A DNA stretch of 64,000 nt, taken from the NCBI GenBank assembly GCA_024711125.1, contig JANJTM010000031.1, forward strand, positions 34,059-98,058. The letters run 5' to 3'. The notes beneath the pieces were generated by a model. That model saw only the letters and a program-made list of their open reading frames with translations, was not told the DNA's origin and did not search any database. Of the stretch, positions 7,429 through 64,000 are shown one piece after another. Source of the DNA: Rhodothermales bacterium. GTDB lineage: Bacteria; Bacteroidota; Rhodothermia; Rhodothermales; UBA10348. Position numbers and translations under genes: made by a program. Each line of letters opens with the position of its first letter. The first letter of the stretch is position 1.

Positions 7429-7920
7429 TCAGAGGTCTCCCTTGCGGTAGTCGCCGCTGCGTCCGCCGGTCTTGGCGACCAGGTGGATGTCGTCGATGCG
7501 GATCGACTTGGAGACCGATTTGCACATGTCGTAAATGGTGAGAGCCGCGATGGAAACGGCCGTGAGCGCCTCCATCTCGACCCCGGTCGGGCCCTGGCTC
7601 TTGGCGAAGGCCCGGATTTCGACGGACGTCGATGCGTCGTCGAGCATGAGTTCGACGTCCACGCCGCGCAGGCTCACGTCGTGGCAGAGCGGAATCAGGC
7701 GACTGGTCTGCTTGGCGCCCTGGATCCCCGCGATCTGTGCCGTCAACAGGACGTCGCCCTTCTTGACCCGGTTTTCGCGGATCAGGCGGGCAGCCTCCTC
7801 CCCGACGACGACCCGTCCGGTCGCTACCGCCGTTCGCAGCGTCTCGGCTTTTTCCGAGATGTCGACCATGCGCACGCCCCCCCTCGGGTCCAGGTGCGTA
7901 AGCTCGGGAAGGTCAACCAT
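7429..7920 (-). CDS. moaC: Cyclic pyranopterin monophosphate synthase MoaC
   Basis: [45 protein letters not shown] and [24 protein letters not shown]. The ATG at 7920 gives 163 aa. Confidence 0.9.
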
Positions 7921-7974
7921 GGGGTTCGGGTTCTTGGGTCGGGCGGTATACGCCCGATCGGCGGCAACGTTCTT

Positions 7975-8488
7975 GGGCGTGTTCACACTCCGGGTCCTCG
8001 TTCTTTTGCGACGCGCGTGATGCGATACGGCGAGCCGAAGAAGGACCTCGGCCGGCGCGCGATCGAGGGTCTGCGTCCGTACGGCCTCGAGTTGACAGCC
8101 GAATTCGGGGTCGGGGAGGAGGGGCTTCGGGGAGCGTCGGCCTGGTGGGGCGCCATTTCCTGCTCTCGGCGCGACGAAGTGGAAAATCGCCGCAGATTCC
8201 ACTTCCGCGCCCGAAGAATGGCCTCGGAAGTGGAATTTCGCCTCCTGTTCCACTTCCCTGACGAGGTCGTTCGCAACAGCACCACGAAAAGTCCGGCAGG
8301 CCCCGGGACGGGCAGCGTGGTGTAGCAGGCGTGCGCCGCGTGACTCCGGGGCCCGCCCATGGCCGGGAAGGGCTCCGCGCGGGTTCGAGTCCGCCCCCAG
8401 ATGGAACTTGGGGACGATTCCGCTTCGATCGGACCCCTGCAAGCAGGACGTGCCGGACCGGACGTCAACCGAGAGTGTGAACACGCCC
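7975..8488. repeat. Structured intergenic repeat element, copy 1 (MITE/REP-like), bounded by perfect 16-bp inverted repeats
   Basis: GGGCGTGTTCACACTC (7975-7990) is the exact reverse complement of GAGTGTGAACACGCCC (8473-8488). Internal hairpins lie at 8176-8205 and 8226-8257. Its right 77 nt are about 80 percent identical to 61772-61848. Confidence 0.65.
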
Positions 8489-8505
8489 CAGGAAACGACC
8501 GGGGC

Positions 8506-9525
8506 TCATCCACCGATGAGAATCATCGGACGCTCCGTATTCCGCGCGATCAGGTCCATGCCGTCATGGGAGGCCTTCTTTCGGGCGAGACCCTCGCGGA
8601 TGCGGTCCAGGACGGCCTCGTCATCCGAACCTTCGCGCAGCGCATCACGAAGCGAGACACCCGCCGACGCGAAGAGGCACGTCATCAGGCGGCCGTCGGC
8701 CGTCACGCGGAGCCTGTTGCAGCCCGAGCAGAAAGCGTCGGTCATCGACGAAATGAAACCCACCGTACCGGGGGCACCGGGTACGCGCCACTCGTGGCTC
8801 GTCGAGTGGGGCCCGTCGTCGAGTTTCTCGAGGTCCGGGAACGCGGAGCGGACCCGCTCGAGCAGTTCGGCCTGGGGAACCAGCGCGTCGCGATTCCAGC
8901 CGTTGCCCTCGAACGGCATGTACTCGATGAACCGGACGGACACGGGTTCGCGGGTCGACCACCGCACGAAATCGAGGATCTCGTCGTCGTTCACCCCGCG
9001 CATCACGACGGCGTTGACCTTCAGCGGACGGTAGCCGGCAGTGATGGAGGCCCGGATGGCAGACAGCACCGTGTCGAGTCCGGGGCGGCGGGTCATGTCA
9101 CGGAAGCGATCGGCCCGTAGCGTGTCCAGGCTGACGTTGATCTCGGTCAACATGCCCGCTTTGAGGCGCGGGAGCAGGGGTTCGAGCAGCAACCCGTTCG
9201 TCGTAAGCGCCAGGCGCCGGAGGCCGGGCAGGGCGCCGAGCGCTTCGACCAGTTCCTCGACGTCCTTGCGTACCAGCGGTTCGCCGCCCGTGAGGCGGAT
9301 CTTGCGCACGCCGGCAGAGACGAAAAGCCCGGCCAGCCGCACGATCTCCTCGTAGGTCAGCAGTTCGGCCCTGGGCCTCAGGGCGACGCCCTCGGCGGGC
9401 ATGCAGTAGACGCACCGCAGGTTGCATCGCTCCGTGAGGGAGACCCGCAGGTAGTCGTGCACGCGCCCGAACGCATCGACGAGCGGCGGTCGTCGCGGAT
9501 GAGGATCGGGTGGAGCGGCGGGCAT
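8506..9525 (-). CDS. moaA: GTP 3',8-cyclase MoaA (radical SAM)
   Basis: YLRVSLTERCNLRCVYCMP radical-SAM motif, GVRKIRLTGGEPL, and a C-terminal Cys cluster CSGCNRLRVTADG. Confidence 0.9.
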   Translation of the reverse strand: MPAAPPDPHPRRPPLVDAFGRVHDYLRVSLTERCNLRCVYCMPAEGVALRPRAELLTYEEIVRLAGLFVSAGVRKIRLTGGEPLVRKDVEELVEALGALPGLRRLALTTNGLLLEPLLPRLKAGMLTEINVSLDTLRADRFRDMTRRPGLDTVLSAIRASITAGYRPLKVNAVVMRGVNDDEILDFVRWSTREPVSVRFIEYMPFEGNGWNRDALVPQAELLERVRSAFPDLEKLDDGPHSTSHEWRVPGAPGTVGFISSMTDAFCSGCNRLRVTADGRLMTCLFASAGVSLRDALREGSDDEAVLDRIREGLARKKASHDGMDLIARNTERPMILIGG

Positions 9526-12732: not shown

Positions 12733-15700
12733 TCACACCACGGCCGCCGCGATGAGGGTCTCCTGCTCCGCCTGGTGTACGTGCTGGCTGCCGGAAGCGG
12801 GACTGGCCGAGGCGGGACGCCCGGCGTAGCGGGCCCGGTGACGGCAATCGCCGCGCAGGTCCTCGAGCACATCGTCGAGCCGCTGGCGCACGTAGGACCA
12901 GGCACCCATGTTGGCCGGCTCCTCCTGCATCCAGACCACCTCGACCGACGCGGGCATGCGGGCGATCTCGGCGCGAACCGCGTCGGCCGGGAACGGATAC
13001 AGCTGCTCGATCCGCGTGAGGGCCACCTTTCCGGTGCGGCCGGGAAGCGCGTTCCTGGCGTGCAACGCCTCGTAGTAGACCTTTCCGCTGCAGAAGACCA
13101 GGCGTTCGACCCCCGCCGGGTCCACCGTGGCGTCGGGCAGGATCTCCCGGAAGGAACCCTCGGTGAAGTCCTCGGGCGCCGACACGGCATCCGGATGCCG
13201 GAGCAGGGACTTCGGTGCCATCACGACGAGCGGCTTGCGCAACGCGCCGTGCACCTGGCGCCGCAGCGCGTGGAAGTAGTTCGCCGGCGTCGACAGGTTC
13301 GCCACGATCATGTTGTTCTCGGCACAGAGCTGGAGGAAGCGCTCCAGGCGTGCCGACGAGTGCTCGGGGCCCTGGCCCTCGAAGCCGTGCGGGAGCAGCA
13401 GGACAAGGTTGGAGGTCTGTCCCCACTTCTCCTCGGCCGCCGACAGGAACTGGTCGTAGACGATCTGGGCACCGTTCGAGAAGTCGCCGAACTGGGCCTC
13501 CCAGATGACCAGCGCGTTGTCGACGGCGACCGAGTACCCGTACTCGAAACCGCAGGCCGCGTACTCCGACAGGAAACTGTCGTAGATCCAGAGGTGAGCC
13601 TGGCCGTCACCGATGTGATTCAGGGGCGTATAGCCGGCCCCGGTCTCCTGGTCGTAGACGACGGCGTGCCGGTGGCTGAACGTGCCGCGGCGGGAGTCCT
13701 GGCCGGATATGCGCACGCGTTTGCCTTCCTGCAGCAGCGTGCCGAAAGCGAGGGCCTCGGCGAATCCCCAGTCGATGCGCCGGTCCTCGTGCCAGGTCCG
13801 CGTGCGACGCTCGAACTGGCGGAGGAGCTTCCGGTGCACGGCGAAATCGGACGGGAAGGTCGACAGGGCGCGCAGCACGGGTTCCACGGCCTCGGGGCTG
13901 ACGCGCGTCTCGACTGCAGGGATGCCCTCGGGCTTCGGCCGGCGGGTCGGAATGCTGCCGGCGGGCGCCGCCTCGCCGGACAGCTCGCGCGTCCGGTCGA
14001 AGGCCTCCTGCAGCCGTCCGCGGAAATCCTCGAGGATGGTCTCGGCCTCCTCCGGAGTGACATCTCCGCGCCGGAGGAGCAGTTCGGTGTACAGCTTGCG
14101 CACCGAACGCTTGGCTTCGATCCGCTTGTAGAGCAGCGGCTGGGTATAGGTCGGCTCGTCCCCCTCGTTGTGCCCGCGCACCCGGTAACAGAGGAGGTCG
14201 ATGACCACGTCCTTGTTGAACTCCTGCCGGTAGGCGAACGCGAGGCGCGCCACGCGCACGCAGGCGTCCGGGTCGTCTCCGTTGACGTGGAAGATCGGCG
14301 CCTGGATCATGCGCGCCACGTCGGTGGCGTACTGCGACGACCGGGCTTCGTCGGGGCTGGTCGTGAAGCCGATCTGGTTGTTCACGATCAGGTGGATCGT
14401 TCCGCCTACCCGGTAGCCCGGCAGCTGGCTGAGGTTCAGGGTCTCGGCCACGACACCCTGGCCGGCGAACGCCGCGTCACCGTGCACCAGGATCGGGACC
14501 ACCGTGTCGTGCCAGTCTCCGTCCGGCGCGACCAGGCCCTGTTCGCGCAGCGACTCCTGGCGTGCCCGCACCATGCCCTCGACGACCGGGTTGACGGCTT
14601 CGAGATGGCTCGGGTTGGAGGCCATCATGAGTCGGACCCGCCTGCCGTCCGGCGAGACATGCTCTCCCTTCGCGCCGAGGTGGTACTTGACGTCGCCCGA
14701 GCCCTGGTAGGACGTCGGGTCGATGTTTCCCTCGAACTCCGAAAAGATGACCTCGTAGGGCTTGTTCAGGATGTTCGCGAGCACGTTGAGTCGCCCGCGG
14801 TGCGCCATTCCGATCACGACCTCGTCCACGCCGCGCTCGGCCGCGTCGGTCAGGATCATGTCGAGCACCGGGATCATGGTCTCGGCGCCCTCGAGCGAGA
14901 ATCGCTTGTGCCCGATATACTTGGTATGGAGGAAGTTCTCGAACGCCTCGGCCGCGTTCAGCTTCTCGAGCATGCGTCGGCGCGCCGCCTCGGACAGGCC
15001 CTCCGCGCCCGCGTTCGGCTCGATGTGGGAGACGATCCACTCCTTCTCGCCCGGATCCGAGATGTGCATGAACTCCACGCCCACCTTGCGGGTGTAGGTT
15101 CTGCGCAGGATCTCCAGGATCTCGCGGAGCGGAAGCAGGCCGTGCGGCCCGAAGTCCCCGGTGACGAACTTGCGGTCGAGGTCCCAGATCGTCAGGCCGT
15201 ACTTCGCCGGATCCAGTTCGGGGTGGTAGCTCCAGTCGTAGCCGAGCGGGTTGACGTCGGCCTGGAGGTGTCCCCGCACGCGGAAGGCACGGATGAGCTG
15301 CAGCACCTGGGCCTGCTTCTCGATCATCTCGAGACCGCTCTCGCCAGAGACGCCCGACGGGGTCGAGTCGGACTGCAGCACGTACGGCGGGTACGGGATG
15401 CCGAGATCGGCGAACACCTCCTCGTAGAAGCCGTGTCGACCGAGGAGCAGTTCCTCCACGTGCTGGAGGAACGCGCCGCTCTCGGCGCCCTGGATCACGC
15501 GGTGATCGTACGTCGACGTGATCGTCATGACCTGCGAGATGCCGGTCCGGGCGATCATTTCGGGCGGAAACGCGAAGTACTCGGTCGGGTAGCCGATCGA
15601 ACCGACCCCCACGATCACACCCTGTCCCGGCATCAGTCGGGGGACCGAGAGGTCGGTCCCGATCATGCCGGGGTTGGTGATCGAGGCGTTCGTGCCCTCG

Positions 15701-16410
15701 AAGTCCGAAACCTCCAGCCGGTTCTCTCGGGCGCGGCGCACGATGTCGTTGTAGATGCCGAGGAACTGCACGAACCGCATGCGGTCGGCGTGCTTGACGT
15801 TCGGCACCAGCAGCGTGCGTTTGCCCTTGCGCTCCACGTCGATGGCCAGGCCGAGGTTGACCCCGTCCGGGATCACGTGCTGGGGCGTGGTGCCCTCGAC
15901 GCGGTAGGTCGTGATCATGTTCGGGAACGCCTTGAGGCCCCGAACGATGGCCCACGCCACGAGATGGGTGAAGGAAACCTTGTCTCCGCCCGTGTCCTTC
16001 TGGAAGTCGTTGATGAGGAGGCGGTTCTCGGCCATGAGCTTGACCGGGACCGTGCGTACCGACGTGGCGGTCGGCACGGCGAGGCTCGCCTCCATGTTCT
16101 CGACGATGCGCGCTGCGGGACCGCGGATCGGGCGGACCTCGGCGCCGGCCGGAATCGGCGGCTGCGGCCGGTCGACCGGTGGCGGCGGGGCGCCGTCGCC
16201 CTCGGTCCCCGGCGCGACCACGGCGGGCGGGGGAGCGGCCGGGTGGACCGCGGTCGGAACGGGACGCGCCTCGGCCGCCGCGAGGAATGCGGCGTCTGGC
16301 TTGAAGTCGGCGAAGAACTCGCGCCAGGTCGCGCTGACGCTATCCGGGTTCTCGAGGTACTGCCGGTAAAGCTCCTCGATGAACCCGGTATTGAAACCGG
16401 GGTGGTTCAC
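12733..16410 (-). CDS. sucA: 2-oxoglutarate dehydrogenase E1 of the long Kgd/OdhA type, with an N-terminal E2-like acyltransferase domain
   Basis: 1225 aa. The N-terminus is FIEELYRQYLENPDSVSATWREFF. It is followed by an E2-catalytic-like block (SFTHLVAWAIVRGL...NPGMIGT...) and then the E1 TPP region (HGDAAFAGQGVV, MAHRGRLNVL). Confidence 0.9.
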   Translation of the reverse strand: MNHPGFNTGFIEELYRQYLENPDSVSATWREFFADFKPDAAFLAAAEARPVPTAVHPAAPPPAVVAPGTEGDGAPPPPVDRPQPPIPAGAEVRPIRGPAARIVENMEASLAVPTATSVRTVPVKLMAENRLLINDFQKDTGGDKVSFTHLVAWAIVRGLKAFPNMITTYRVEGTTPQHVIPDGVNLGLAIDVERKGKRTLLVPNVKHADRMRFVQFLGIYNDIVRRARENRLEVSDFEGTNASITNPGMIGTDLSVPRLMPGQGVIVGVGSIGYPTEYFAFPPEMIARTGISQVMTITSTYDHRVIQGAESGAFLQHVEELLLGRHGFYEEVFADLGIPYPPYVLQSDSTPSGVSGESGLEMIEKQAQVLQLIRAFRVRGHLQADVNPLGYDWSYHPELDPAKYGLTIWDLDRKFVTGDFGPHGLLPLREILEILRRTYTRKVGVEFMHISDPGEKEWIVSHIEPNAGAEGLSEAARRRMLEKLNAAEAFENFLHTKYIGHKRFSLEGAETMIPVLDMILTDAAERGVDEVVIGMAHRGRLNVLANILNKPYEVIFSEFEGNIDPTSYQGSGDVKYHLGAKGEHVSPDGRRVRLMMASNPSHLEAVNPVVEGMVRARQESLREQGLVAPDGDWHDTVVPILVHGDAAFAGQGVVAETLNLSQLPGYRVGGTIHLIVNNQIGFTTSPDEARSSQYATDVARMIQAPIFHVNGDDPDACVRVARLAFAYRQEFNKDVVIDLLCYRVRGHNEGDEPTYTQPLLYKRIEAKRSVRKLYTELLLRRGDVTPEEAETILEDFRGRLQEAFDRTRELSGEAAPAGSIPTRRPKPEGIPAVETRVSPEAVEPVLRALSTFPSDFAVHRKLLRQFERRTRTWHEDRRIDWGFAEALAFGTLLQEGKRVRISGQDSRRGTFSHRHAVVYDQETGAGYTPLNHIGDGQAHLWIYDSFLSEYAACGFEYGYSVAVDNALVIWEAQFGDFSNGAQIVYDQFLSAAEEKWGQTSNLVLLLPHGFEGQGPEHSSARLERFLQLCAENNMIVANLSTPANYFHALRRQVHGALRKPLVVMAPKSLLRHPDAVSAPEDFTEGSFREILPDATVDPAGVERLVFCSGKVYYEALHARNALPGRTGKVALTRIEQLYPFPADAVRAEIARMPASVEVVWMQEEPANMGAWSYVRQRLDDVLEDLRGDCRHRARYAGRPASASPASGSQHVHQAEQETLIAAAVV

Positions 16411-16523
16411 GGGTGACGGGTCCGGATGGACGTAGAAAGGCGGATGTGAACGTAAGGCAGTGCGCCCTGGTTCTTCGTCGGTCGGATCCGAAGGGCGTTA
16501 CGCGGCCTTTCGGCGCGGGCCGA

Positions 16524-21623: not shown

Positions 21624-21657
21624 ATCAGCTTCGCGCGGGTCGGGTTGCGCTGCCGGG

Positions 21658-21686
21658 ACGATAGACCAAGACGCGGGAAAAAGCAA
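21658..21686 (-). promoter_or_regulatory. Putative sigma70-type promoter for the DUF2795/Omp85 unit
   Basis: On the minus strand: TTGCTT, a 17-nt spacer, then TATCGT, about 35 nt upstream of the 21623 start. Confidence 0.3.
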
Positions 21687-21753
21687 GCCACGAAAATCCG
21701 CCGAAATGCGCGAAAAAAAGCGCTTTGATGCGGACCAGCTCTTGCGAAACCCG

Positions 21754-22731: not shown

Positions 22732-22964
22732 TCCGGGCGTCTGGTCGGGGCGCCGCGGCGCGGCGGCAACGTTCAGTCGGATATCGGTCGGTAGCGGAAG
22801 AGGCTAAAACCGTCGAGGAGCCGTCGGGCGGAGACCGGTTGCCCGGGACCGGTCGCCCGAAGGGCAAAGAAAACGCCGGGGCGGGAGAAAAGGATTCCCT
22901 GAATTAAAAAAAATTCAGAAGAAGCGAAGAAGAACCGTAAGCTCAACGGGCGCAATGACCTGGG

Positions 22965-26293: not shown

Positions 26294-27103
26294 ATGATCG
26301 CCGACCCCGAACCTGCCTCGGCCTACGACAAGGCCGCTGCCCATGACATCGACCCGAGGTGCGTCCCGCAGCGGCTCGACCACGAGCCGCCGGTGGGGGA
26401 CGCCATCCCGTACCCGGACTATCCCGCGCAGGACCACGCGAACTGGCGGTTCCTGTTCGAGCGCCAGATGGCGCTACTGCCGGGCCGGGCGGGGGACGCG
26501 TTCACGAGCGGCGTCGATCGGCTGGGCATGACCCCGGACCGCATTCCCTCGCTCGCATCGATGAGCAGGCGCATGCAGGACGCGTCGGACTGGCGCATCG
26601 CGCGCATCCCGGGGCTGGTTCACGAGCAGGATTTCTTCGCGCTGCTCGCCCGTCGGCTCTTTCCGTCGACCGACTACATCCGGGGAGCCGATGAACTCGA
26701 CTACACGCCCGCCCCCGACTGTTTCCACGACATGTTCGGGCACATGCCGATGCTTACCGAGCGCGCGTTCGCCGATTTCTACGCACTGTTCGGCCGGGCC
26801 GCGCTCGGGGCGACGGGGAAGGATCGCACGAGCCTCGAGCGCCTGCACTGGTTCACGGTCGAGTTCGGTCTCGTACGACAGGGAGACGGCCTCCGCATCT
26901 TCGGAGCGGGCATCCTCTCCTCGAAGAACGAGGTGACGCACGCCCTGTCAGATGCGGTGGACGTCCTTCCGTTCGACCCGGACAGGGTCGTGGAACAGGA
27001 TTACGACGTCTGGCACCTGCAGCCGACGCTCTTCGCCCTCGATTCGTTCGAGCAGCTCGTCGACGGCTTCTCCTCGTGGGCAAAGCGCCGCCGTCTGCTC
27101 TAG
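26294..27103 (+). CDS. phhA: Phenylalanine-4-hydroxylase
   Basis: PDCFHDMFGHMPML iron-binding His pair, HWFTVEFGL, and IFGAGILSS. Confidence 0.9.
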   Translation: MIADPEPASAYDKAAAHDIDPRCVPQRLDHEPPVGDAIPYPDYPAQDHANWRFLFERQMALLPGRAGDAFTSGVDRLGMTPDRIPSLASMSRRMQDASDWRIARIPGLVHEQDFFALLARRLFPSTDYIRGADELDYTPAPDCFHDMFGHMPMLTERAFADFYALFGRAALGATGKDRTSLERLHWFTVEFGLVRQGDGLRIFGAGILSSKNEVTHALSDAVDVLPFDPDRVVEQDYDVWHLQPTLFALDSFEQLVDGFSSWAKRRRLL

Positions 27104-27380
27104 CGCGTGTTCACGCCCTACCCGCGACTCCATTCGGCAGCGGTGTGGCCTTCGACACGCAGGCTGCCGGATCTGCGCGGTGCGGGAGGCGGGCCGGGCG
27201 CCGGCCGGGTCAACTCTCGCTTCCGAACAGGCCCGAAGGGTGGACTTGTGCACTATCGGGGCCAGATAGTGCACAATTGCACCCGCCGGCGACCGTCGCG
27301 GTCGATTACCGGGCCGGCTTCCCCTGCAGTCTTCCGACCGGACTGCTGGGTTCCGATCCGGGCCCGGCGTGAACACGCCC
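27103..27380. repeat. Structured intergenic repeat element, copy 3
   Basis: GCGCGTGTTCACGCC (27103-27117) versus GGCGTGAACACGCCC (27366-27380) is a 14/15 inverted repeat. An internal 10-bp perfect hairpin GTGCACTATC-N7-GATAGTGCAC lies at 27248-27274. It shares TCCGATCCGG...GGCGTGAACACGCCC with copy 2. Confidence 0.6.
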
Positions 27381-27402: not shown

Positions 27403-29463
27403 TCAGGACACCTGGTCCTGTCCCGACGGCGGGGCGTACACGGTCTCTATGTAGTCCACGATCATCCGGTAGGCGCTGAACCGGTACGAGAGGCCCTTCA
27501 TGGCGCTTCGCATCCGCGCCACCCAGGCTGTCGGAATGCCGCGATCGTCCCGGTCGTAGAACATCGGGATGACCTCGTCCCGGAGGGTACGGTACAGGAA
27601 CGCGGCGTCCTCTGGGTCTTGGACCGCGGGGTCCTTGTACTCGTGCGAGGCCTCGTGGCCGATCGCCCAGCCGTTGGTCCCGTCGAAGCCCTCGGGCCAC
27701 CATCCGTCGAGGATGGACAGGTTGAGCCCGGCATGGATGGCCACCTTCTGGCCGGACGTACCGCTGGCCTCGTAGGGACGACGCGGGGTGTTGAGCCACA
27801 CGTCGCAGCCCGAGACCAGCATGCGGCCGACCTCCATGTTGTAGTTCTCCAGGAACACGAGACGCCCCTCGAACCGCGGGTCCCTGGTCATCTCGAAGAT
27901 GGTGTGGATGAACTTCTGGCCCTCGACGTCGGCCGGATGCGCCTTGCCTGCGTACACGATCTGGACCGGACGCCCGGGCTGGCGGAAAAGATCGATCGTG
28001 CGCTGCAGGTCATGGAAAAGCAGCGGAGCCCGCTTGTAGGTCGCGAATCGCCGGGCGAATCCGATGGTGAGGGCGTTCGGATCGAGGCGTGGCGATTGCG
28101 GCAGCGTCTGGTAGCGCACATGCTCGACCACGTATTCGACGAGCGCCGCGCGAAGGCGGGTGCGGTACTCCCAGAGCGCCTGGTCGGGAATGGCGTCGAT
28201 GCGGTCCCAGACGCGGCCCTCGGAGCGCTTTCCGACCCAGTCGGCGCCGAGGTGCTCCCGCAGGAAGGCCCGTGCGTGGGGTGCCGCCCAGGTGGGCAGG
28301 TGCACGCCGTTGGTGACGTGGCCGATCGGGACCTCTTCGACGTTCCGGTGCGGGAAGAGATGGTGCCACTGGCGGCGCGACACCTCTCCGTTGAGCCTGG
28401 AGACGCCGTTCGCCGAACGGGCGAGCTTCAGGCCGAGCACGGTCATGGTGAACGCCTCGGTCATGTCGTGGGGATTGACGCGCCCCCAGGCCAGGAGGTC
28501 GTGTTCCGAAAGCCCGATCTGCTCGCGGAAACGGGCCATCTGCTCGAGGAACAGGGCCGGCTCGAACCGGTCGTGCCCGGCCGGCACCGGGGTATGGGTC
28601 GTGAAGACCGACCGGGAGCGCACCCAATCCTCCGGAGGGATGGACCAGTCTCCGGACTGGCGCCGCTCGGCCAGCAGTTCGAGCGTGACGAACGCGCAGT
28701 GCCCTTCGTTCATATGGTACACGTCGACCGGAAGGCCCAACGCGCGCAACAGGCGGACCCCGCCGATGCCGAGTGCGATCTCCTGCTGGATGCGGGTGCG
28801 GCGATCGCCCTGGTAGAGGCGCCGCGTCAGGAACCGCACCTCGTACGGGTTGGCGTCGAAGTCGGCGTCGAGCAGCAGCAGTTCGCAGCGGCCGACCCGA
28901 AGTCGCCAGGCGCGCAGGTGGAGCGGCGTCCAGCCGAGGTGTACGGTGACGACCACCGGCTCCCCGTCCTTGCCCAGCACCGGCTCGACCGGGTGCCGCG
29001 TGGCGTCGATCGACGGGTACTCGTCCTGCTGCCAGCCGTTGGCGTCGAAATACTGCTTGAAGTAGCCGTCGCGGAGGAAGAGGCCGATCGCCGTGAGCGG
29101 CAGACCGGCGTCGCTGGCGGCCTTGACGTGGTCGCCCGCCAGGATGCCGAGTCCTCCGGAGTAGAGCGGAAGGCTCTCGTGCAGGCCGAACTCCATGCAG
29201 AAATAGGCCGTGCGCGGGGATCGGGCGAAGGGTCCGGGTTCGTCCATGTACGCGCGGAAGGCCGCGTGGACGGAATCGACCTCTGCCCGGAACGAGGCGT
29301 CCTCGAGAAGGGCGGGGTCGGCGAGGCGCAACGCCGCCACCGGGCTGTTGGCGGCGCCCGTGAACGCGCCGGGATTCAGCCGACGGAATAGATCGACGGC
29401 CTCGGGGTGCCAGCTCCACCACAGGTTGGAGGCGACGGCCTCCAATTGCTCCCGCACGTCCAT
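27403..29463 (-). CDS. glgP: Alpha-glucan (glycogen/maltodextrin) phosphorylase, GT35, ~700-aa type
   Basis: NLWWSWHPEAVDLFRRLNP, GGLGILAGDH and YAGKAHPADVEGQ. The ATG at 29463 was chosen inside the longer ORF. Confidence 0.85.
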   Translation of the reverse strand: MDVREQLEAVASNLWWSWHPEAVDLFRRLNPGAFTGAANSPVAALRLADPALLEDASFRAEVDSVHAAFRAYMDEPGPFARSPRTAYFCMEFGLHESLPLYSGGLGILAGDHVKAASDAGLPLTAIGLFLRDGYFKQYFDANGWQQDEYPSIDATRHPVEPVLGKDGEPVVVTVHLGWTPLHLRAWRLRVGRCELLLLDADFDANPYEVRFLTRRLYQGDRRTRIQQEIALGIGGVRLLRALGLPVDVYHMNEGHCAFVTLELLAERRQSGDWSIPPEDWVRSRSVFTTHTPVPAGHDRFEPALFLEQMARFREQIGLSEHDLLAWGRVNPHDMTEAFTMTVLGLKLARSANGVSRLNGEVSRRQWHHLFPHRNVEEVPIGHVTNGVHLPTWAAPHARAFLREHLGADWVGKRSEGRVWDRIDAIPDQALWEYRTRLRAALVEYVVEHVRYQTLPQSPRLDPNALTIGFARRFATYKRAPLLFHDLQRTIDLFRQPGRPVQIVYAGKAHPADVEGQKFIHTIFEMTRDPRFEGRLVFLENYNMEVGRMLVSGCDVWLNTPRRPYEASGTSGQKVAIHAGLNLSILDGWWPEGFDGTNGWAIGHEASHEYKDPAVQDPEDAAFLYRTLRDEVIPMFYDRDDRGIPTAWVARMRSAMKGLSYRFSAYRMIVDYIETVYAPPSGQDQVS

Positions 29464-38680: not shown

Positions 38681-38723
38681 CCCGATCCACCCCGAACCCC
38701 GACCGGGTTAGCGAACCAACGGT

Positions 38724-41700
38724 ATGAACCAGCGATTCTCCCCCCGTATCGCCGTCCAGGTGGCCCTTTTCGGCCTTTTCCTGGCGAGCGCCGGCACGGT
38801 GAGCGCCCAGGGCGTCATCGACCGGAACCACGTTCCGAGCAAGGAGCGCATCGACCCGTTCGAGCGCCGCAAGGACAACGTCGACGCCAACAACGTGCGC
38901 GCGACGATCACCAACTACGCGCAGACGGCCGAGTCCGGAACCCCGGGCGACTACCTCTACGAGTGGCCCAAGAACACGAACCGGACCTACATCGCGCTCA
39001 CGCAGCTCTGGGTCGGCGCGCGGGCCGTCGATACGCGGGGCGACACGCTGTGGGTCGTCGACGTGGCGGATTTCCGCAACAATCCCGTCAACGAGAACGT
39101 GTCGTGGAAATTCGACCCGATCAAGGGGTACGTGAATCCGGCGGGTTCGGCGTTCGGCATCGCGCAGTCGGACGAACCGACCTCCTGGCCCCAGTCGTGG
39201 CCCGACAAGGCGACCGACGTCGTGGATCCCGGGTGGGCGGGTTCGTGGAACGGGTTCTTCGGGAAGAACAACTTCAACGCCGATCAGGAATTCTTCTACA
39301 AGGTCGGTGACGACCAGTACGACCGCTATCCGACGTTTTTCCCCGACTCGACGGATCTCACCCGCAAGGGCATGGGCCTGATCGCCGAGGTCCGGACCCT
39401 GGCGTGGAGCCAGATCCTGATCGACGACGTCGTATTCCATATCCACGGCATCAAGAACGACGGCACGGCGGCGCTTCCGCAGGTCGGGTTCTCGATGTGG
39501 CTGGCCGACCTGGTCGGCGGCGATTCGCAGGACGACATCCCGTTCTTCGACCTGCTCGAGGACGTGGCGTTCATGACCGACGCCGACGGGATCGGCGACG
39601 AGACGTTCGGTGCGGACCGCGTCGGGCAGGCGGTGTTCGCGTTCCTCGAGACCCCGGGGAACGCCGTCGACCGCATCGACAACGACGCCGACGGATCGAC
39701 CGCGCCCGAGTGCGTTCCGTCGATCGGCGAGTGCAACAGCCCGATCGTGCCCGAGGGCTTCCTGATCGGCGAGAACCCGACGAACGGCGTGGACGACAAC
39801 GGGAACGGGCTCATCGACGAGAACCAGACGCACACGGCGTTCGTGGGCGAGCAGGCCGTCAACATCGGCGTGGGTTACGCGGACTACATCGACAACGACC
39901 GGGACGGCGAGCAGGGAGGCCCCGTCGTGACGGCCGACATGCTGGCCGCGGCCTCGTCGGACGCGTTCTTCCGCTGGCCCCCGAACCCGGGATCGGACAA
40001 TATCTCGAAACGGGCCAACGGCCGGCCGATCGTTCACCTGATCGGCGTCGAACAGGACGACCTCGGTCTTCCGTTCCGCGACAACATCGACAACGACGAC
40101 TCGTGCGTCGCGCCGACGGCGGCGTATCCCTACCTGTCGGAATCCCGGTCGCCGACCGTGACGCAGGAGATCGTCAACGCGGCCGCCGCCGACCCCTACC
40201 GGCGCTACCGCGTGCCCGGTACCAACGTCGTACTGTACGACGTCGGCCCCGAGGACCTGGGCAAGTGCTACGCCGACGGGCGCGACAACGACGGCGACGG
40301 CGCGGTCGACGAAGGCATCGACGAGGGCTTCGACGAGATGATCGACGAAAGCCGGGCCGACGGAATCGACAACGACGGCGACTGGAATCCGCTCCAGAGC
40401 GACACGGGCCTCGACGGCGTTCCGTTCACGGGCGACCCGGGCGACGGCGACGGCGTGCCGACCACGGGCGCGGGCACGGGCTTCCCGGGCGAACGCAACA
40501 TCGACGTGACCGACATCTCGGAATCGGACCAGATCGGCATCACGAACGTGCAGATCTTCCCGGCCTTCTCGCTCAACTTCAATACGCAGTCTGACCGGTA
40601 CCTCTTCAACACGTTCATGCGGCCGGGTGACTTCGACGCCGACATCCCGGCGCCGGGCGAGAACGACATCACCGTGTCGTCGGCCCTCTTTCCGCTCGAA
40701 CCGGGCCAGACCGAGCGCATCTCGCTCGCCATCGGCCTGGGCGGAAGCCGCGACGAGGTGCTGCAGTCGCGCCAGTACGCGCTGCAGGCGTACCTGGAGG
40801 ACTACCAGTTCGCGCAGGCTCCGATCACGCCGGAGCTTTCGGCGGTGGCCGGCGACGGCCGGGTGACGCTCTACTGGGATTCGGACGCCGAGGAATCGTA
40901 CGACCAGTTCCTCGCGGGACTCGGTCGCGACCCGAACGACTTCGAGGGCTACCGCGTCTACCGCGCGACCGACCCGGCATTCCTCGACGCGCTCACGATC
41001 ACCGACGGGTTCGGCAATACGCTGCTCCGCAGTCCTATCGCCCAGTTCGACAAGATCAACGCGCACTCGGGTTTCCACCCGGTCGACATCAACGGCGTCA
41101 AGTTCTTCCTCGGAACGAACCGGCGCGACACGGCGCTCGGCGAGGACGCGTACGGACTCGTGCACTCGTTCGTCGATACCACGGTGACCAACGGCATCAC
41201 GTATTACTACGCGGTCACCGCGTACGACTACGGATCGGTGATCGACAACATCCCGCCGACAGAAACGCCGATCCGCATCCAGCGGCAACCCGACGGATCC
41301 ATCGTCCCCGGGCGCAACGTCGCCGTGGTGACGCCGACCCCGGCCACGGCCGGCATGGTGGCGGCCGACATTCCCGAGGGAATCCAGCGTACGAAGGGGG
41401 CGACATCCAGCCGCATCGGCTACCGCATCATCGACCCGACGGTCATCGACGACGGCCGGCGCTATCGCATCACGTTCGAGGACACGCTCAAGCCGTCGGG
41501 CAACCGGAACGTTCCCGACACCCTGACCACGAAGAACTTCTCGCTGCACGACGTGGCAAGCGGCGAAACCCTCATCGAACGCTCCACGGCGTTCGGCACG
41601 AACGAGGAGTTCCCGGTGTTCGACCGGTTCGGGGACCCGCTCGGGTTCAACCTCTCGTTCTTCCTCGAGCCGTTCATCCTGCTCAACCGCACGGCCTCGG

Positions 41701-42596
41701 TGTGGAACGGCGACGCGGCGTCGAACATCTACCCGGTGACCCTCGAGCCGTACCTCTCGGCGGGCTTCCTGACGGGCCTTCGCAATCCGACCGACTATCG
41801 CGTCAAGGTCGTAGGCCCGGGCCAGGGACAGTCGGTCCAGATCCAGGTGGCGCGCCGCCTGACCCTGCCGGCCCGCCCGACCAACGTCCAGGTGTTCAGG
41901 GTGCACCCGGACGGCACCGAGGAGCCGGTCGAATACGCGTTCTGGGACCTCACCGGCCCCGATTTCACGTCGCCGACCGCGACCACGCCGGCTTCGTGGT
42001 CGGCGTCGCCGACCCTCGGCGAGAGCGACCTGCTGGTGCTCTACGAAGTCCCGGTGGGTGCGACCGACAACGTCAAGAAGGTCACGTGGCGCATCGGGCT
42101 CAACTTCGTGTTCCGTGACAACCGGGATCCGCAGGAGGGAGACGTGATCGACATCGTCACGCGCAAGCCGTTCCTGTCCACCGACGAGTTCGAGTTCACG
42201 GTGCGCGCGCCGTATACCGACGCGGCGCTGGCCGACTCGCTGATGGAACGCATACGGGTCGTTCCGAACCCGTACGTGGCCACGAACAGCTTCGAGCCGC
42301 TGAATCCCTTCACCACGGGACGCGGGCCTCGGGTCATCAAGTTCATCAACCTTCCGCCCGACGCCACGGTGCGCATCTTCACGGTCGCCGGCCGGCTCGT
42401 GCGGACCCTGCGGAGGGACTACGGGGCCAACGACATCCCCGAGGATCCCTACGCCGCCCTCAACCTGATGAACGGTACCCTGGACTGGAACCTCGAGAGC
42501 GAGGAGGGGCTGACCGTTTCGTACGGGGTCTACCTGTACCACGTCGACGCGCCCGGAATCGGCGAGAAGACCGGCACCTTCGCGATCATCAAGTAG
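38724..42596 (+). CDS. 1290-aa secreted protein of unknown function: acidic DxDxDG-type loops, an FN3-like module and a C-terminal T9SS-CTD-like beta-sandwich
   Basis: Signal VALFGLFLASAGTVSAQ. Acidic loops include DNDADGS, DDNGNGLIDEN, DNDRDGEQG, DNDGDGAVDEG and DNDGDWN. The FN3-like module reads VTLYWDSD...GYRVYRATDP...YYYAVTAYD. The C-terminus is VVPNPY...VRIFTVAGRLVRTL...GVYLYHV...GTFAIIK. Confidence 0.8.
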   Translation: MNQRFSPRIAVQVALFGLFLASAGTVSAQGVIDRNHVPSKERIDPFERRKDNVDANNVRATITNYAQTAESGTPGDYLYEWPKNTNRTYIALTQLWVGARAVDTRGDTLWVVDVADFRNNPVNENVSWKFDPIKGYVNPAGSAFGIAQSDEPTSWPQSWPDKATDVVDPGWAGSWNGFFGKNNFNADQEFFYKVGDDQYDRYPTFFPDSTDLTRKGMGLIAEVRTLAWSQILIDDVVFHIHGIKNDGTAALPQVGFSMWLADLVGGDSQDDIPFFDLLEDVAFMTDADGIGDETFGADRVGQAVFAFLETPGNAVDRIDNDADGSTAPECVPSIGECNSPIVPEGFLIGENPTNGVDDNGNGLIDENQTHTAFVGEQAVNIGVGYADYIDNDRDGEQGGPVVTADMLAAASSDAFFRWPPNPGSDNISKRANGRPIVHLIGVEQDDLGLPFRDNIDNDDSCVAPTAAYPYLSESRSPTVTQEIVNAAAADPYRRYRVPGTNVVLYDVGPEDLGKCYADGRDNDGDGAVDEGIDEGFDEMIDESRADGIDNDGDWNPLQSDTGLDGVPFTGDPGDGDGVPTTGAGTGFPGERNIDVTDISESDQIGITNVQIFPAFSLNFNTQSDRYLFNTFMRPGDFDADIPAPGENDITVSSALFPLEPGQTERISLAIGLGGSRDEVLQSRQYALQAYLEDYQFAQAPITPELSAVAGDGRVTLYWDSDAEESYDQFLAGLGRDPNDFEGYRVYRATDPAFLDALTITDGFGNTLLRSPIAQFDKINAHSGFHPVDINGVKFFLGTNRRDTALGEDAYGLVHSFVDTTVTNGITYYYAVTAYDYGSVIDNIPPTETPIRIQRQPDGSIVPGRNVAVVTPTPATAGMVAADIPEGIQRTKGATSSRIGYRIIDPTVIDDGRRYRITFEDTLKPSGNRNVPDTLTTKNFSLHDVASGETLIERSTAFGTNEEFPVFDRFGDPLGFNLSFFLEPFILLNRTASVWNGDAASNIYPVTLEPYLSAGFLTGLRNPTDYRVKVVGPGQGQSVQIQVARRLTLPARPTNVQVFRVHPDGTEEPVEYAFWDLTGPDFTSPTATTPASWSASPTLGESDLLVLYEVPVGATDNVKKVTWRIGLNFVFRDNRDPQEGDVIDIVTRKPFLSTDEFEFTVRAPYTDAALADSLMERIRVVPNPYVATNSFEPLNPFTTGRGPRVIKFINLPPDATVRIFTVAGRLVRTLRRDYGANDIPEDPYAALNLMNGTLDWNLESEEGLTVSYGVYLYHVDAPGIGEKTGTFAIIK

Positions 42597-45830: not shown

Positions 45831-45880
45831 CCGGGGCCGGTGCGCGCCGCAGGGCGCGTGCCGGCCCCGGTCGCTTTTCG
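45831..45880 (+). terminator. Strong intrinsic terminator or attenuator between the CBM gene and the amylase gene
   Basis: 18-bp stem CCGGGGCCGGTGCGCGCC / GGCGCGTGCCGGCCCCGG (two G-U pairs) with loop GCAG, followed by TCGCTTTTCG. Confidence 0.6.
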
Positions 45881-61459: not shown

Positions 61460-61496
61460 GGGTTTCGAGGGGCCTACGCGTGGCGCTGACCAATCC

Positions 61497-61848
61497 GGGC
61501 GTTCTCCGCTTCGCGCCGCGTTGTGGATCCGGTCAGATCGGGCGATCGCGCGGCTCAGGGTCTCTTGGGGCCGGTCCGCGCCGCATCCTCGCCTCTTTGC
61601 AGCCTCTCGCCACTTCCACGCGGTAGTTCGATTCCTACCCTAAATGGAAGTTCGGCGCCGATTTGGAGGGTGTTCTGCTTCGATATTGGCCCCAAATGGA
61701 AGTTCGGCGCCGGTTTGGAGGGTGTTCAACTTCGATTTTGGCCCCAAATGGAAGTTCGGCGCCCTTCTGAAGGACGATTCAGCTCCGATCCGGCTCCGGC
61801 GATCAGGACGTGCCGGCCCGGGCGGCACCCGCAAGCGTGAACACGCCC
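61497..61848. repeat. Structured intergenic repeat element, copy 2 (left terminus degenerate)
   Basis: The right terminus GTGAACACGCCC is at 61837-61848. Positions 61772-61848 match 8412-8488 at 62/77 positions in an ungapped hand count. The left end GGGCGTTCTCCGC (61497-61509) resembles GGGCGTGTTCACACTCCGG with an internal deletion. Confidence 0.6.
61642..61763 (+). repeat. 52-nt tandem direct repeat, 2.3 copies, inside element copy 2
   Basis: Units 61642-61693 and 61694-61745 differ at 4 of 52 positions. A third partial unit (61746-61763) is identical for 18 nt. Confidence 0.9.
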
Positions 61849-61865: not shown

Positions 61866-64000
61866 TCACCCCAGCCTCCCCTCCGCGACCACCACCGCCC
61901 GCAGCGCCACCGGGCCCATCAGCCCCGACGGAAGCAGCTCCATCTCGGCGCGGAAGCGGTTCTTGATGTTCGTGCGGGCAAACTCGCCCGCGTCGGGATA
62001 GCGAAGGTCGCCGACGATGCGGTTGTGCCACACGTTCGTGACCCGGATTTCGAGTCGGTTCGTGCCGGCGTGGACCCTGTCGGTCACGTCCATCGTGTAG
62101 GGCGGGCACCAGAGAAGGCCCGTGGGCACGCCGTTGATGGCGACCTCGGCGACTTCCGCCACCCTTCCCAGGTCCAGCAATAGCACGCGGTTCGGGCCCA
62201 CGTGGTCGGCCGGCACGTCGATCGTGGTCTCGTAGACCGCCGTGCCCGAAAAGACGCGCGCGCCCTCGGGCTCCAGTTCGGTCCACGACCCCAGTGCGTC
62301 CAGGTCGATGCGATCGGGCGCTCCGCGTCCGGCCGGGAAGCGCAGGGTCCACGGACCCAAGATCGGAAGGTCGGGCGGAGGGGCCGGGGCGTCGAGCGTG
62401 GCCGAGCGTCCCCTGTTCGTCCGGACCGTGACGGAGCCACCCGTGCGGGCCTCGATGCGAACGCGCCCGGCCGAGCAGTCGAGGACTTCCAGGTCCGGGA
62501 CGACGAGGGCGGCTGCGCCGGTGTCGGAGCGCTCGATCCCGACCACGTGCTCCGTTTCGCTGTCGCGGGCAAACACCACGAAGATCGACGAGGCGGGCGC
62601 GAGGCGGATGGGAACGCGGGTCCGGCCGTCCTCGCGGCGGTAGACCGGGCAGGGCGTGACGCTTCCGTCCACCGGATTCCAGAAGGACGGCGCGGCGGCC
62701 TCGTCCACGCGGAACGAGCACTCGGCGTCCACGGGCTCGTCGGCGCTGTTGGTGACGAAGTAGACGTCCTCGTTTTCGGTGCGGCGGTGGATGTAGTCGA
62801 TCGCCGGCGAATCCGGGGATTCCACGGTGAAATCGGGCCGCACCACGAGGCTCCCCAGGATGCCGCGCAGGGGGACGTCCCCGTAGACACGGCCTTTTCC
62901 GACCGCACGCGGGATAGCCGGGTCTCCCGTCGGCCACATCCCGGATACGAGTTTCTGCACCTCGGCATCGCACTCCGGGTAGCCCTCGAGGCTGTTGGCG
63001 CGCTGCGGCGGGCGTCCGACGAGTGTCGCGCCCGCGCGCACCAGTTCGTCGAGGCGGCGCAGCACGGGCAGCGCGATGTCGTCCCGGTCGGGCATGACCA
63101 GGAAACGGTACTCCATGCCGCTCGACAGCGTGAGGAGCCCGTCCCGTACCCGCAGGTCGTTCAGGACGATGTCCCGGTTCACGTAGTCGTAGTCGTAGCC
63201 CGGCCCGAGGCTTTCGACGCGGTTGGGCATGGGGCGGCCGCAGTGCTGGCAGGTGCCCTCGGGGTGCCGCGGAACGACCTTCGGGTCGATCCGGCGCGAC
63301 GGGACGAGGCCCGGGGCGTCGTCTCCGTAGTAGAAGCACGCCTCCGCGACGAAGCGGCCCTGCCGAAGCAGGTGGCTGCACCGCGCGAGGTACTCGACCA
63401 TCGGACCGGCCTGGTCCCACCAGGTCGAGTTCACGTTGAAGTGCTCGCCCGCGTGGTAGGCGAACCCTAGCTTGCCGGCCTCGGGAGGGTTGTGGGCGAA
63501 CGTGTGGAAGACCCCCATCGTGAGGCCGGCGCAGAACGCGATGTCGTACAATCTCCGGTACTCGGCCGGGCCGTCCTTCCAGTGGCGCCAGCCCGTCAGG
63601 GCCTCGGCCGCGACGTCGGTGCGTCCGTAAATGTGCGCCGCGCTCGCGGCCTCCTTCGTGACCCAGAACTGGCTTCCATTCCAGAACTCGCCCATCGGGA
63701 TATGCGCGGAGCCGAGGGCCTGGAGCGGATCGACGCGCGGGTACCCCCCGTGTCCCGCCTCAGACAGCACCTTCATGCCCTGCCCCTCGAGCAGCGCACC
63801 CGACCGCGCGAAGTGGTTTCCGATCATCATGCGCGAGACGAGCACGCGGTAGTCGTGCAAGAACCGTTCGCGGACCTCCGGGGCGTGGATCGTCTTCCCG
63901 GCTATCTCGGGGAGGTACGGAACGGGGTCGTAGCCGAATTCCTTGCGGAAGAGCTCCTCGAACCCCGGAGTCCAGTCGGGGCGCTCCCACACCTCGAAGC
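61866..64000 (-). CDS. Large glycoside-hydrolase-like protein with a C-terminal galactose-binding-like (GH2-type sugar-binding) domain; the N-terminus is outside the window
   Basis: The frame is open to the window edge. The C-terminal FSGTAVYETTIDVP...VAINGVPTG...LEIRVTNVWHNRIVGD pattern matches jelly-roll sugar-binding domains. The CAZy family cannot be assigned by eye. Confidence 0.6.
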   Translation of the reverse strand, partial: FEVWERPDWTPGFEELFRKEFGYDPVPYLPEIAGKTIHAPEVRERFLHDYRVLVSRMMIGNHFARSGALLEGQGMKVLSEAGHGGYPRVDPLQALGSAHIPMGEFWNGSQFWVTKEAASAAHIYGRTDVAAEALTGWRHWKDGPAEYRRLYDIAFCAGLTMGVFHTFAHNPPEAGKLGFAYHAGEHFNVNSTWWDQAGPMVEYLARCSHLLRQGRFVAEACFYYGDDAPGLVPSRRIDPKVVPRHPEGTCQHCGRPMPNRVESLGPGYDYDYVNRDIVLNDLRVRDGLLTLSSGMEYRFLVMPDRDDIALPVLRRLDELVRAGATLVGRPPQRANSLEGYPECDAEVQKLVSGMWPTGDPAIPRAVGKGRVYGDVPLRGILGSLVVRPDFTVESPDSPAIDYIHRRTENEDVYFVTNSADEPVDAECSFRVDEAAAPSFWNPVDGSVTPCPVYRREDGRTRVPIRLAPASSIFVVFARDSETEHVVGIERSDTGAAALVVPDLEVLDCSAGRVRIEARTGGSVTVRTNRGRSATLDAPAPPPDLPILGPWTLRFPAGRGAPDRIDLDALGSWTELEPEGARVFSGTAVYETTIDVPADHVGPNRVLLLDLGRVAEVAEVAINGVPTGLLWCPPYTMDVTDRVHAGTNRLEIRVTNVWHNRIVGDLRYPDAGEFARTNIKNRFRAEMELLPSGLMGPVALRAVVVAEGRLG

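Follow-up and report, generated by a model that had tools for sequence, protein, structure and literature searches.

Non-coding intergenic repeats with a common end motif near gene 3' ends in a Rhodothermales bacterium: a probable and loosely knit REP/BIME-MITE-like family

Three intergenic elements and their end motif

The window (the whole stretch of DNA analysed here, 64,000 nucleotides long and taken from a Rhodothermales bacterium) carries some 40 ORFs, which are housekeeping or carbohydrate-use genes. It also encodes T9SS sorting domains and SusC-like receptors, and the closest named homologues of its MoaA, HprK and PhhA come from Rhodothermales MAGs, at 62-75% identity, which points to an uncultured Rhodothermales-like host. 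Two of the genes, moaA and moaC, lie on the same strand (Table 1) and are kept apart by a spacer of 585 nt, counted from the moaA stop codon (8506-8508) to the moaC start (7920), of which an insert of 514 nt takes up all except 71 nt. The insert, copy 1 in what follows, is bounded by perfect 16-bp terminal inverted repeats, as an earlier note on this DNA had claimed: the GGGCGTGTTCACACTC of 7975-7990 is the exact reverse complement of 8473-8488. By our own estimate, the chance expectation for a perfect 16-nt inverted pair within 585 nt is ~1e-4. The inverted repeat of copy 1 reaches 24 nt at 88%, and a private variant, ACACTC, is present at both of its ends.

Table 1. Coordinates of the genes and element parts referred to in the text (positions in the window)
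Feature	Position	Strand	Remarks
moaA	8506-9525	minus	Radical_SAM + Mob_synth_C
moaC	7429-7920	minus	
Copy 1, left terminal inverted repeat GGGCGTGTTCACACTC	7975-7990	plus	54 nt upstream of moaC start (7920, minus strand)
Copy 1, left interior	7991-8174		unique: without significant match in the window, the fetched loci or plasmids
Copy 1, two 51-nt units	8175-8257		four GGAAGTGGAA boxes in alternating orientation; nested hairpins possible (z=-5.4)
Copy 1, GC-rich hairpin	8287-8366	minus	arms 8295-8306 / 8346-8357, then TTTT (8290-8287) on the minus strand
Copy 1, single unit TTCGAGTCCGCCCCCAGATGGAACTTGGG	8384-8412		homologous to the 52-nt tandem unit of copy 3
Copy 1, 77-nt end module, common to copy 3	8412-8488	minus	holds invariant block CCGGCACGTCCTG; right terminal repeat 8473-8488 at its end
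Copy 2, left motif GCGTGTTCACGCCC	27105-27118	plus	begins 1 nt past the phhA stop (TAG 27101-27103)
Copy 2, interior	27119-27366		long imperfect foldback (z=-3.1); unrelated to copies 1 and 3
Copy 2, central perfect hairpin TTGTGCACTATC-N7-GATAGTGCACAA	27246-27276		12 bp
Copy 2, right motif (GGGCGTGTTCACGC on the minus strand)	27367-27380	minus	22 nt past the glgP stop (27403-27405)
Copy 3, patches homologous to copy 1 8230-8290 (GCCTCTCGCCACTTCC...GGTAGTTCGA)	61590-61626		
Copy 3, three tandem 52-nt units	61627-61782		strongest tandem repeat of the window (TRF score 217)
Copy 3, 77-nt end module	61772-61848	minus	80.5% identical to copy 1; motif 61837-61848 at its end

Two more spacers of the window hold DNA of this kind, one between phhA and glgP (copy 2, about 278 nt) and one between hprK and a GH106 glycoside hydrolase gene (copy 3, about 260 nt); two of the three spacers are convergent and one is unidirectional. 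All three contain the motif GGGCGTGTTCAC, whose five occurrences in the window are confined to these intergenic regions. The 11-mer GTGAACACGCC is found there as four exact copies and one with a single mismatch, and its total for the window at ≤1 mismatch is 12, as against 2.0 ± 1.6 in shuffles. In four of the five cases the motif follows a stop codon at a distance of 0-22 nt and is read on the sense strand of that gene. The distances are 17 nt for moaA (the right terminal repeat of copy 1), 22 nt for glgP, 17 nt for the GH106 gene (stop codon at 61866-61868) and 1 nt for phhA. The first three had been read correctly before; the regularity on the phhA side, where the left motif of copy 2 is on the sense strand of phhA, is missing from the earlier note. 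The five motifs are preceded by CCTG, CCCG, GTCA, TCTT and CTAG(C), and their 3' flanks also vary. The constant part is a near-palindromic end motif of 12-16 nt, GGGCGTG-TT-CAC(GCCC). Copy 2 has it as GGGCGTG-TT-CACGCCC, a 7-bp stem with a TT loop and 16 nt in total; copy 3 has a stem of 5 bp, and that of copy 1 is interrupted. No GTAG or CGTC tag is found at the motif ends, CGTC occurring solely within the distant CCGGCACGTCCTG block.

That the same termini bound two further inserts, as had been thought, is true of both ends of copy 2, which form an identical inverted core of 13 nt and reach 29 nt at 76%, but not of the left end of copy 3. On the hprK side of copy 3 there is no partner motif: 61497-61509 reads GGGCGTTCTCCGC, not GCGTGTTCAC, and forms part of another hairpin that lies downstream of hprK. 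Homology does exist between copies 1 and 3. They share 77 nt at 80.5% identity (E=3e-14), with ~105 nt plus patches in common and patchy homology spanning ~260 nt, and with the motif left out their alignment still scores 60, against 18.5 ± 2.7 for shuffles. For copy 2, both halves were without significant likeness to copies 1 or 3 once the 12-14-nt motif is set aside. To speak of copy 1 as the founding copy of a three-member structured family was an overstatement, copy 3 being single-ended and copy 2 related through the motif only. The three copies are an uneven set with mosaic interiors rather than a single homogeneous family. The feature itself stands, on solid statistics; as a family it is looser than first described.

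Behind the motif, the mosaic interior is made up of a 77-105-nt module, of 51-52-nt hairpin or tandem units whose number varies by locus (1, 2 or 3), and of unique filler. The interior of copy 1 had been described as non-coding and less GC-rich. The former agrees with the lack of any Pfam match among the ORFs that run through the elements; the latter holds at 8150-8300, where GC is 0.59, and fails elsewhere in copy 1, where it is 0.62-0.79 (0.68 for the window). The 52-nt period of the copy 3 tandem units shifts the reading frame. A 105-aa ORF of copy 3, compared with 1.84 billion representative proteins to look for spurious ORFs across other copies, gave two weak matches, which proved to be translated unrelated tandem repeats.

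The tandem units might conceivably be scars of integrative elements, that is, accreted tRNA 3'-end (att) fragments, as the T-loop-like GGTTCGAGTCC / AGTTCGATTCC would suggest. T-arm-like strings are indeed present at 8382-8392 and 61625-61635, each followed by ~12 nt, and they are tandem in copy 3. Their stems pair only if single-base indels are allowed, the neighbourhood holds neither a tRNA gene nor an integrase or foreign gene, and ARAGORN, which reports no tRNA or tmRNA in the window, is as empty as the Rfam tRNA model, relaxed ARAGORN matches falling elsewhere and looking random. A tRNA, tmRNA or att-fragment origin was rejected on the empty ARAGORN and Rfam results, and we give it almost no credence.

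Empty sites, drift and RNA structure

Without its insert, the moaA-moaC gap had been put at about 71 bp (585 minus 514), and the spacers of relatives agree with this. Empty moaA-moaC sites, which the earlier note had proposed looking for, were found in two of them, with gaps of 60 nt (L043, MoaA 76% identical) and 72 nt (L044, MoaA 69% identical). The 60-nt spacer aligns with the window's moaC-side flank (AACGT..CCGCC..CGTATAC), and the 514 nt therefore lie between segments of the ancestral spacer. Copy 2 has its empty site in a relative with a 78% identical PhhA and an 87% identical GlgP C-terminus (L049): in this relative 64 nt separate the stop codons of the convergent phhA and glgP, the motif is absent, and ~20 nt adjoining glgP align to the window. 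Since copies 1 and 2 are missing at syntenic sites whose flanking proteins are 69-78% identical, they are lineage-specific insertions. Both sit right after stop codons and leave both flanking genes undisturbed. For copy 3 an empty site is undefinable because gene order downstream of hprK varies in relatives (L045, L046, L047); the L045 spacer downstream of hprK is not homologous to the copy 3 region. In 78.6 kb of relatives' DNA the motif does not occur at ≤1 mismatch. Closer at hand is a relative with a 95% identical MoaA (L042), which has the copy 1 module at the same site. Going by these comparisons, the insertion of copy 1 would fall between two splits, the earlier one from the relatives with a 76% identical MoaA and the later one from the 95% relative.

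That the window has no transposase, and the elements no target-site duplication, had been pointed out before and held when the flanks and the ~40 ORFs were checked. No duplication was seen at any plausible boundary (the flanks are ..GTTCTT / CAGGAA.. for copy 1 and ..CTCTAG / GGGGCA.. for copy 2), the empty sites of L043 and L049 contain no duplicated segment, and a transposase, recombinase, integrase or invertase domain was found in none of the ORFs.

The empty sites also bear on the possibility that there is no larger unit than the motif, which would then be a short REP-like palindrome without a tag, or a site bound by a DNA-binding protein, that has arisen or been inserted repeatedly beside stop codons, with the DNA between motifs being local and unrelated. 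The unrelated interior of copy 2, the solitary motif of copy 3 and the ability of the copy 2 motif to form a 7-bp stem with a TT loop by itself would all fit, as would the precedent of REPs, which are known as singletons, dimers and clusters that include flanking DNA (PMC3733652). What the relatives lack, though, is not the motifs alone: copy 1 is missing with all of its 514 nt, and copy 2 with ~235 nt. With the ~260 nt of patchy homology that accompany the motif in copies 1 and 3, and the private variant at both ends of copy 1, this makes a free-standing motif decidedly unlikely.

Divergence within the copy 1 module is close to that of four-fold codon sites. Compared with L042, the window's moaA has 93.5% nucleotide identity, and 83% at four-fold degenerate sites; over its first 49 nt the module reaches 75% (37/49). 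In L042 the motif is altered to GGCGCGTATTCAC, and its right repeat arm differs from that of copy 1 at four positions (altered stretch GGCGCGTATTCACTCC). Strains with an identical MoaA show a C/T polymorphism inside the copy 1 module. The near-four-fold-site divergence, the altered motif and this polymorphism together look like neutral drift. The 13-nt block CCGGCACGTCCTG is invariant across copy 1, copy 3 and L042. The 16-nt ends of copy 1 are still identical to each other although the L042 arm differs, which hints at constraint or homogenisation over pure decay.

In a rival reading the module would be a selected RNA at gene 3' ends, in which (U/C)GGGCGUGU pairs with the invariant GCACGUCCUG to make a stem-loop just past the stop codon. 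Such a stem-loop might terminate or protect the mRNA upstream of it, or mark out an sRNA derived from the 3' UTR, and would have been copied to several genes because canonical terminators are few; the window shows no enrichment of canonical hairpin-plus-T terminators. RNAalifold predicts a 10-bp helix that joins the two most conserved blocks, the motif and CCGGCACGTCCTG, on the gene-sense strand, and since four of its pairs are G-U the helix exists on that strand only, which is also the strand of all four stop-proximal motifs. Two positions change on one side and keep the pair, and in copy 3 the helix extends to 13 bp (z=-2.4). The predicted helix has no compensatory double change, however; L042, with its mutated motif, breaks two of the pairs, the copy 1 helix is no stabler than those of shuffles (z=-0.1), and copy 2 is wholly without the partner block. 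Among folds of whole elements, only copy 2 (z=-3.1) and the plus strand of copy 1 (z=-3.3) stand out, and those of copy 3 are unremarkable (z=-0.6 and -0.4).

The GC-rich hairpin of copy 1, which is followed by TTTT on the moaA strand 150-220 nt past the moaA stop, is terminator-like with a large loop, its energy is ordinary for its composition (z=-1.3), and copy 3 has no counterpart of this segment. The shared 77-nt module has no U-tract after its helix, and an intrinsic-terminator consensus scan of 7800-8600 found nothing. Rfam 15 has nothing at gathering score in the window, the three regions giving chance-level matches only (E≥0.2). The earlier note had offered two alternatives, a MITE/REP-BIME-like element and a 3'-UTR, terminator or sRNA module. 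The second is little helped by the empty Rfam result, the lack of compensatory structure and the motif mutated in the 95% relative; set beside the near-neutral overall divergence, these make a selected RNA module unlikely. The first alternative comes out better, with its empty syntenic sites, near-neutral divergence and REP-like placement (PMC3733652).

Occurrence in public collections and breaks in assemblies

Searches of large collections yielded chance matches at most. In 185,579 species-representative genomes (GTDB), the pattern GGCGTGTTCAC-N18-28-CGGCACGTCCTG, which a looser one might outdo, has one match, in coding DNA of a Phycisphaeraceae MAG. In JGI metagenomes the pattern GCGTGTTCAC-N16-26-CCGGCACGTCC, for which a looser form might likewise do better, has 29, all coding-looking and none extending into the module. 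Two patterns run on viral contigs returned nothing, nor did copies 1 and 3 in a blastn search (distant mode) of plasmids (PLSDB). Since the representative-genome, metagenome, viral and plasmid searches, like that with the spurious ORF of copy 3, came out empty, the family seems to be narrow in distribution, and since the scans gave only chance matches its multi-copy status is known from this window only. Exact-protein look-ups of MoaC, HprK and MoxR turned up no record, so the left side of copy 1 and the whole of copy 3 could be followed in the window only.

From the moaA and phhA sides, other samples do run into the elements, and most of them stop there. Six contigs with an identical MoaA, from six runs, read 1-11 kb of upstream genes and end 105-169 nt past the moaA stop, that is, inside copy 1; the L042 contig ends 65 nt past that stop. 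Among the contigs with an identical PhhA (five listed of nine read), four of the five end at 27262, in the loop of the central hairpin of copy 2, and one crosses copy 2 and is identical to the window. Overall, 12-13 contigs from ~10 runs read kilobases through the flanks, and all but one end inside the elements. Runs with this organism include SRR18671895, SRR19748633, SRR19748635, SRR22452311/13/16/18 and SRR23136764, and the 95% relative is from SRR17843154. The known copies, being only ~80% alike, cannot collapse 31-mers and so cannot account for the assembly breaks, which suggest closer copies elsewhere, co-existing structural variants or poor coverage at hairpins.

These contigs speak to a further reading. 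The invertible promoters of Bacteroides are flipped by the Mpi master invertase, and invertons are common in Bacteroidota. Few-hundred-bp intergenic segments, 15-25-bp inverted repeats and a repeat core that is reused at several loci are features that the present elements have in common with them. If a single master invertase likewise acted on the inverted repeats here, expression of moaC and of the genes that follow it would be switched whenever copy 1 flipped. The intergenic segment enclosed by the perfect 16-bp repeat measures 482 bp and lies 54 nt upstream of moaC, the repeat core recurs in copy 2, the host belongs to a Bacteroidota-related lineage, and the arms of copy 1 are identical despite the four differences in the L042 right arm, just as recombination between arms would produce. 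The contigs go the other way: 7/7 that enter copy 1 (from moaA) and 5/5 that enter copy 2 (from phhA) are in the window's orientation and run 48-135 nt beyond the repeat rather than breaking there, which is evidence against frequent inversion, contigs reporting majority paths only. Further differences from the Bacteroides invertons are a convergent locus, copy 2, where there would be nothing to regulate, and a locus with a single repeat, copy 3. No invertase has been found in the window, and no promoter-like site in copy 1 (the scan used the sigma-70 consensus only, which may not be the host's promoter type). A set of invertible segments is, on this showing, highly unlikely.

Likeness to known repeats and a probable reading

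The placement of the motif recalls that of REP families, which follow the upstream ORF within 20 nt or so of its 3' end, occur on either side of convergent gene pairs, keep no fixed distance from the downstream ORF and may be abutted by a TAG stop (PMC3733652). REP palindromes are 20-40 nt long, with a stem of 6-13 bp, a 2-nt TY loop and G-T pairs (PMC3733652), and the superfamilies have an unpaired GTAG or CGTC tetranucleotide at one palindrome end (PMC3733652; Di Nocera et al. 2013). There are tens to hundreds of REPs per genome, and the RAYT gene is flanked by the repeat (PMC3733652). With REP, BIME and REPIN sequences the present elements share a short GC-rich palindrome with a TY-type 2-nt loop and G-T pairs, extragenic and non-coding; the closeness to where the upstream ORF ends, on either side of convergent pairs, with a varying distance to the downstream ORF and a stop codon that can abut the repeat; and inverted pairs able to fold, no target duplication and species-restricted families. 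They differ in having no GTAG/CGTC tag and a palindrome of 16 nt instead of 20-40, in that paired units are 250-480 nt apart (1-100 in REP-type pairs), and in the 77-105-nt module and 51-52-nt units that accompany the motif; no RAYT is seen in the window.

Bacterial MITEs include the Correia/NEMIS elements of Neisseria, RUP of Streptococcus pneumoniae and ERIC/IRU of enterobacteria. Their interiors may differ between subfamilies that have common ends; Correia and RUP duplicate TA or a few bp, and a missing target-site duplication is atypical for DDE-type MITEs. Likeness to MITEs lies in the size (150-550 bp), non-coding nature, terminal inverted repeats (in copies 1 and 2), foldback and intergenic location, often within an operon, and in presence or absence among close relatives. 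Unlike MITEs, the elements lack a target-site duplication, one copy is single-ended, the copies are old and divergent (~80%) rather than near-identical, and no parent IS with these ends is known for them. The third point of comparison is with the MIRUs of mycobacteria, intergenic tandem units of ~51-53 nt between co-directional genes, which lack terminal inverted repeats, run in the direction of the operon and contain small ORFs that overlap the neighbouring stop and start codons. The tandem units in spacers, of much the same length and varying in number by locus, are shared with them, but the present elements have terminal inverted repeats and no sequence similarity to MIRUs was found.

The elements are, in our judgement, probably a small, old and decaying family, restricted to one lineage, of non-coding, non-autonomous repeats of the REP/BIME-MITE kind. 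This builds on what is established, namely insertion as compared with relatives, shared ends, a shared module, non-coding status and near-neutral drift. An enzyme acting in trans and encoded elsewhere in the genome would have spread the elements, and the absent target duplication favours a duplication-free recombinase or transposase (for example of the Y1/HUH RAYT type) over a DDE enzyme. Because copies 1 and 3 are ~80% identical, the spreading burst would be placed around or before the split from the 95% relative. Copies would then have been kept only at a harmless or mildly useful spot just past a gene 3' end, where their GC-rich stems may act incidentally as 3'-end stem-loops on the upstream mRNA; a target preference near gene 3' ends is indistinguishable from a loss of all insertions except the harmless ones. 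The elements would be structurally unstable because of their internal tandem units and hairpins, and this may be why metagenome assemblies break inside them. Counted against a reading as a repeat family are the small number of copies in the window, five of the motif and two truly homologous elements, the lack of a target-site duplication, of a GTAG or CGTC tag and of a transposase or RAYT with these ends, the shortness of the palindrome, and the 250-480 nt between paired motifs.

A bolder proposal goes beyond a decaying repeat family. The end module might be a strand-specific stem-loop spread by transposition (GGGCGUGU with GCACGUCC, G-U pairs included) and set 17-22 nt past stop codons, serving 3'-end formation or mRNA protection where canonical terminators are scarce; or the inverted repeats might be the sites at which a master invertase flips segments. 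Either turn of this conjecture we consider decidedly improbable.

If the favoured reading as an old REP/BIME-MITE-like family is true, it adds an undescribed, untagged intergenic repeat family in Rhodothermales-like bacteria. The literature on Rhodothermus and Salinibacter yielded no relevant report of MITE or REP repeats, and none was found for the Rhodothermales-like group. With elements that spread without target duplication, the mobilising enzyme in the full genome becomes the interesting part, and interest would rise with an unusual enzyme of that sort or with the module shown to form mRNA 3' ends. There is a practical warning, too: assemblies of this organism break inside the elements, splitting the moaA-moaC pair.

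Flanks and interior of the elements

The string that the earlier note had taken for the left terminus of copy 3 (the copy between hprK and the GH106 gene) falls within a hairpin downstream of hprK. The hairpin, CTGACC..ATCC...GGAT..GGTCAG (window 61487-61537, + strand), lies about 28 nt 3' of the hprK stop and is probably hprK's own 3' structure. In L045, a relative's contig encoding an 88% identical HprK, the spacer 3' of hprK is 328 nt long (1552-1880) and contains GGAATTGGAATTTCGGCCCA...TGGGCCG hairpins with a faint likeness to the GGAAGTGGAATTTCGCC boxes of copy 1; at 66% over 65 nt (E=0.03), that similarity is not significant.

The moaC start is preceded, about 30 nt upstream, by a small hairpin that includes the block CGTATAC (minus strand, window 7946-7952); this block is conserved (about 1715-1721) in L043, a relative's contig whose moaA-moaC spacer has no insert. 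The block is a possible upstream signal belonging to moaC itself, and that would account for the tolerance of copy 1 in the moaA-moaC spacer.

The repeat units inside copies 1 and 3 contain strings resembling tRNA T-loops, GGTTCGAGTCC and AGTTCGATTCC (window 8382-8392 and 61625-61635). A tRNA reading of these strings was rejected, ARAGORN and the Rfam tRNA model both being negative.

Metagenome contig ends

Contigs from about ten metagenome runs (loci L001-L011 and L042) stop at the same few sites within the elements (window 8337, 8396, 8401 and 27262), each site being in or adjoining a hairpin loop. Closer repeats, strain variants and coverage loss are alternative candidate causes.

Terminators and other genes in the window

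A consensus terminator scan found fewer intrinsic terminator sites overall in the window than in shuffles. Among the canonical intrinsic terminators of the window, the clearest (45833-45878, + strand; z=-5.65) consists of a GC-rich hairpin of 22 bp with TCGCTTTTCGG after it, and is located directly 3' of the stop (45798) of the gene for a CBM20/T9SS-tail protein. T-rich tracts (TTTTTTT, TTTTTTTT), unusual in a 68% GC window, lie at 21650-21753 and 22880-22964, 3' of the stops of minus-strand M23 peptidase and RidA-like genes.

The 1254-aa protein encoded at 12733-16497 (- strand) is an OdhA/Kgd-like fusion, in which 2-oxoglutarate dehydrogenase E1 is combined with the E2 catalytic domain of a 2-oxoacid dehydrogenase acyltransferase.

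Members of the starch/maltodextrin-use cluster (window 33077-53856, + strand)
Feature	Position
LacI regulator	within 33077-53856
PPIase	within 33077-53856
TonB-dependent receptor with CarboxypepD_reg domain	within 33077-53856
1294-aa protein without Pfam match	38712-42593
CBM20 + Por_Secre_tail protein	within 33077-53856
Alpha-amylase-family proteins (n=3)	within 33077-53856
MFS transporter	within 33077-53856
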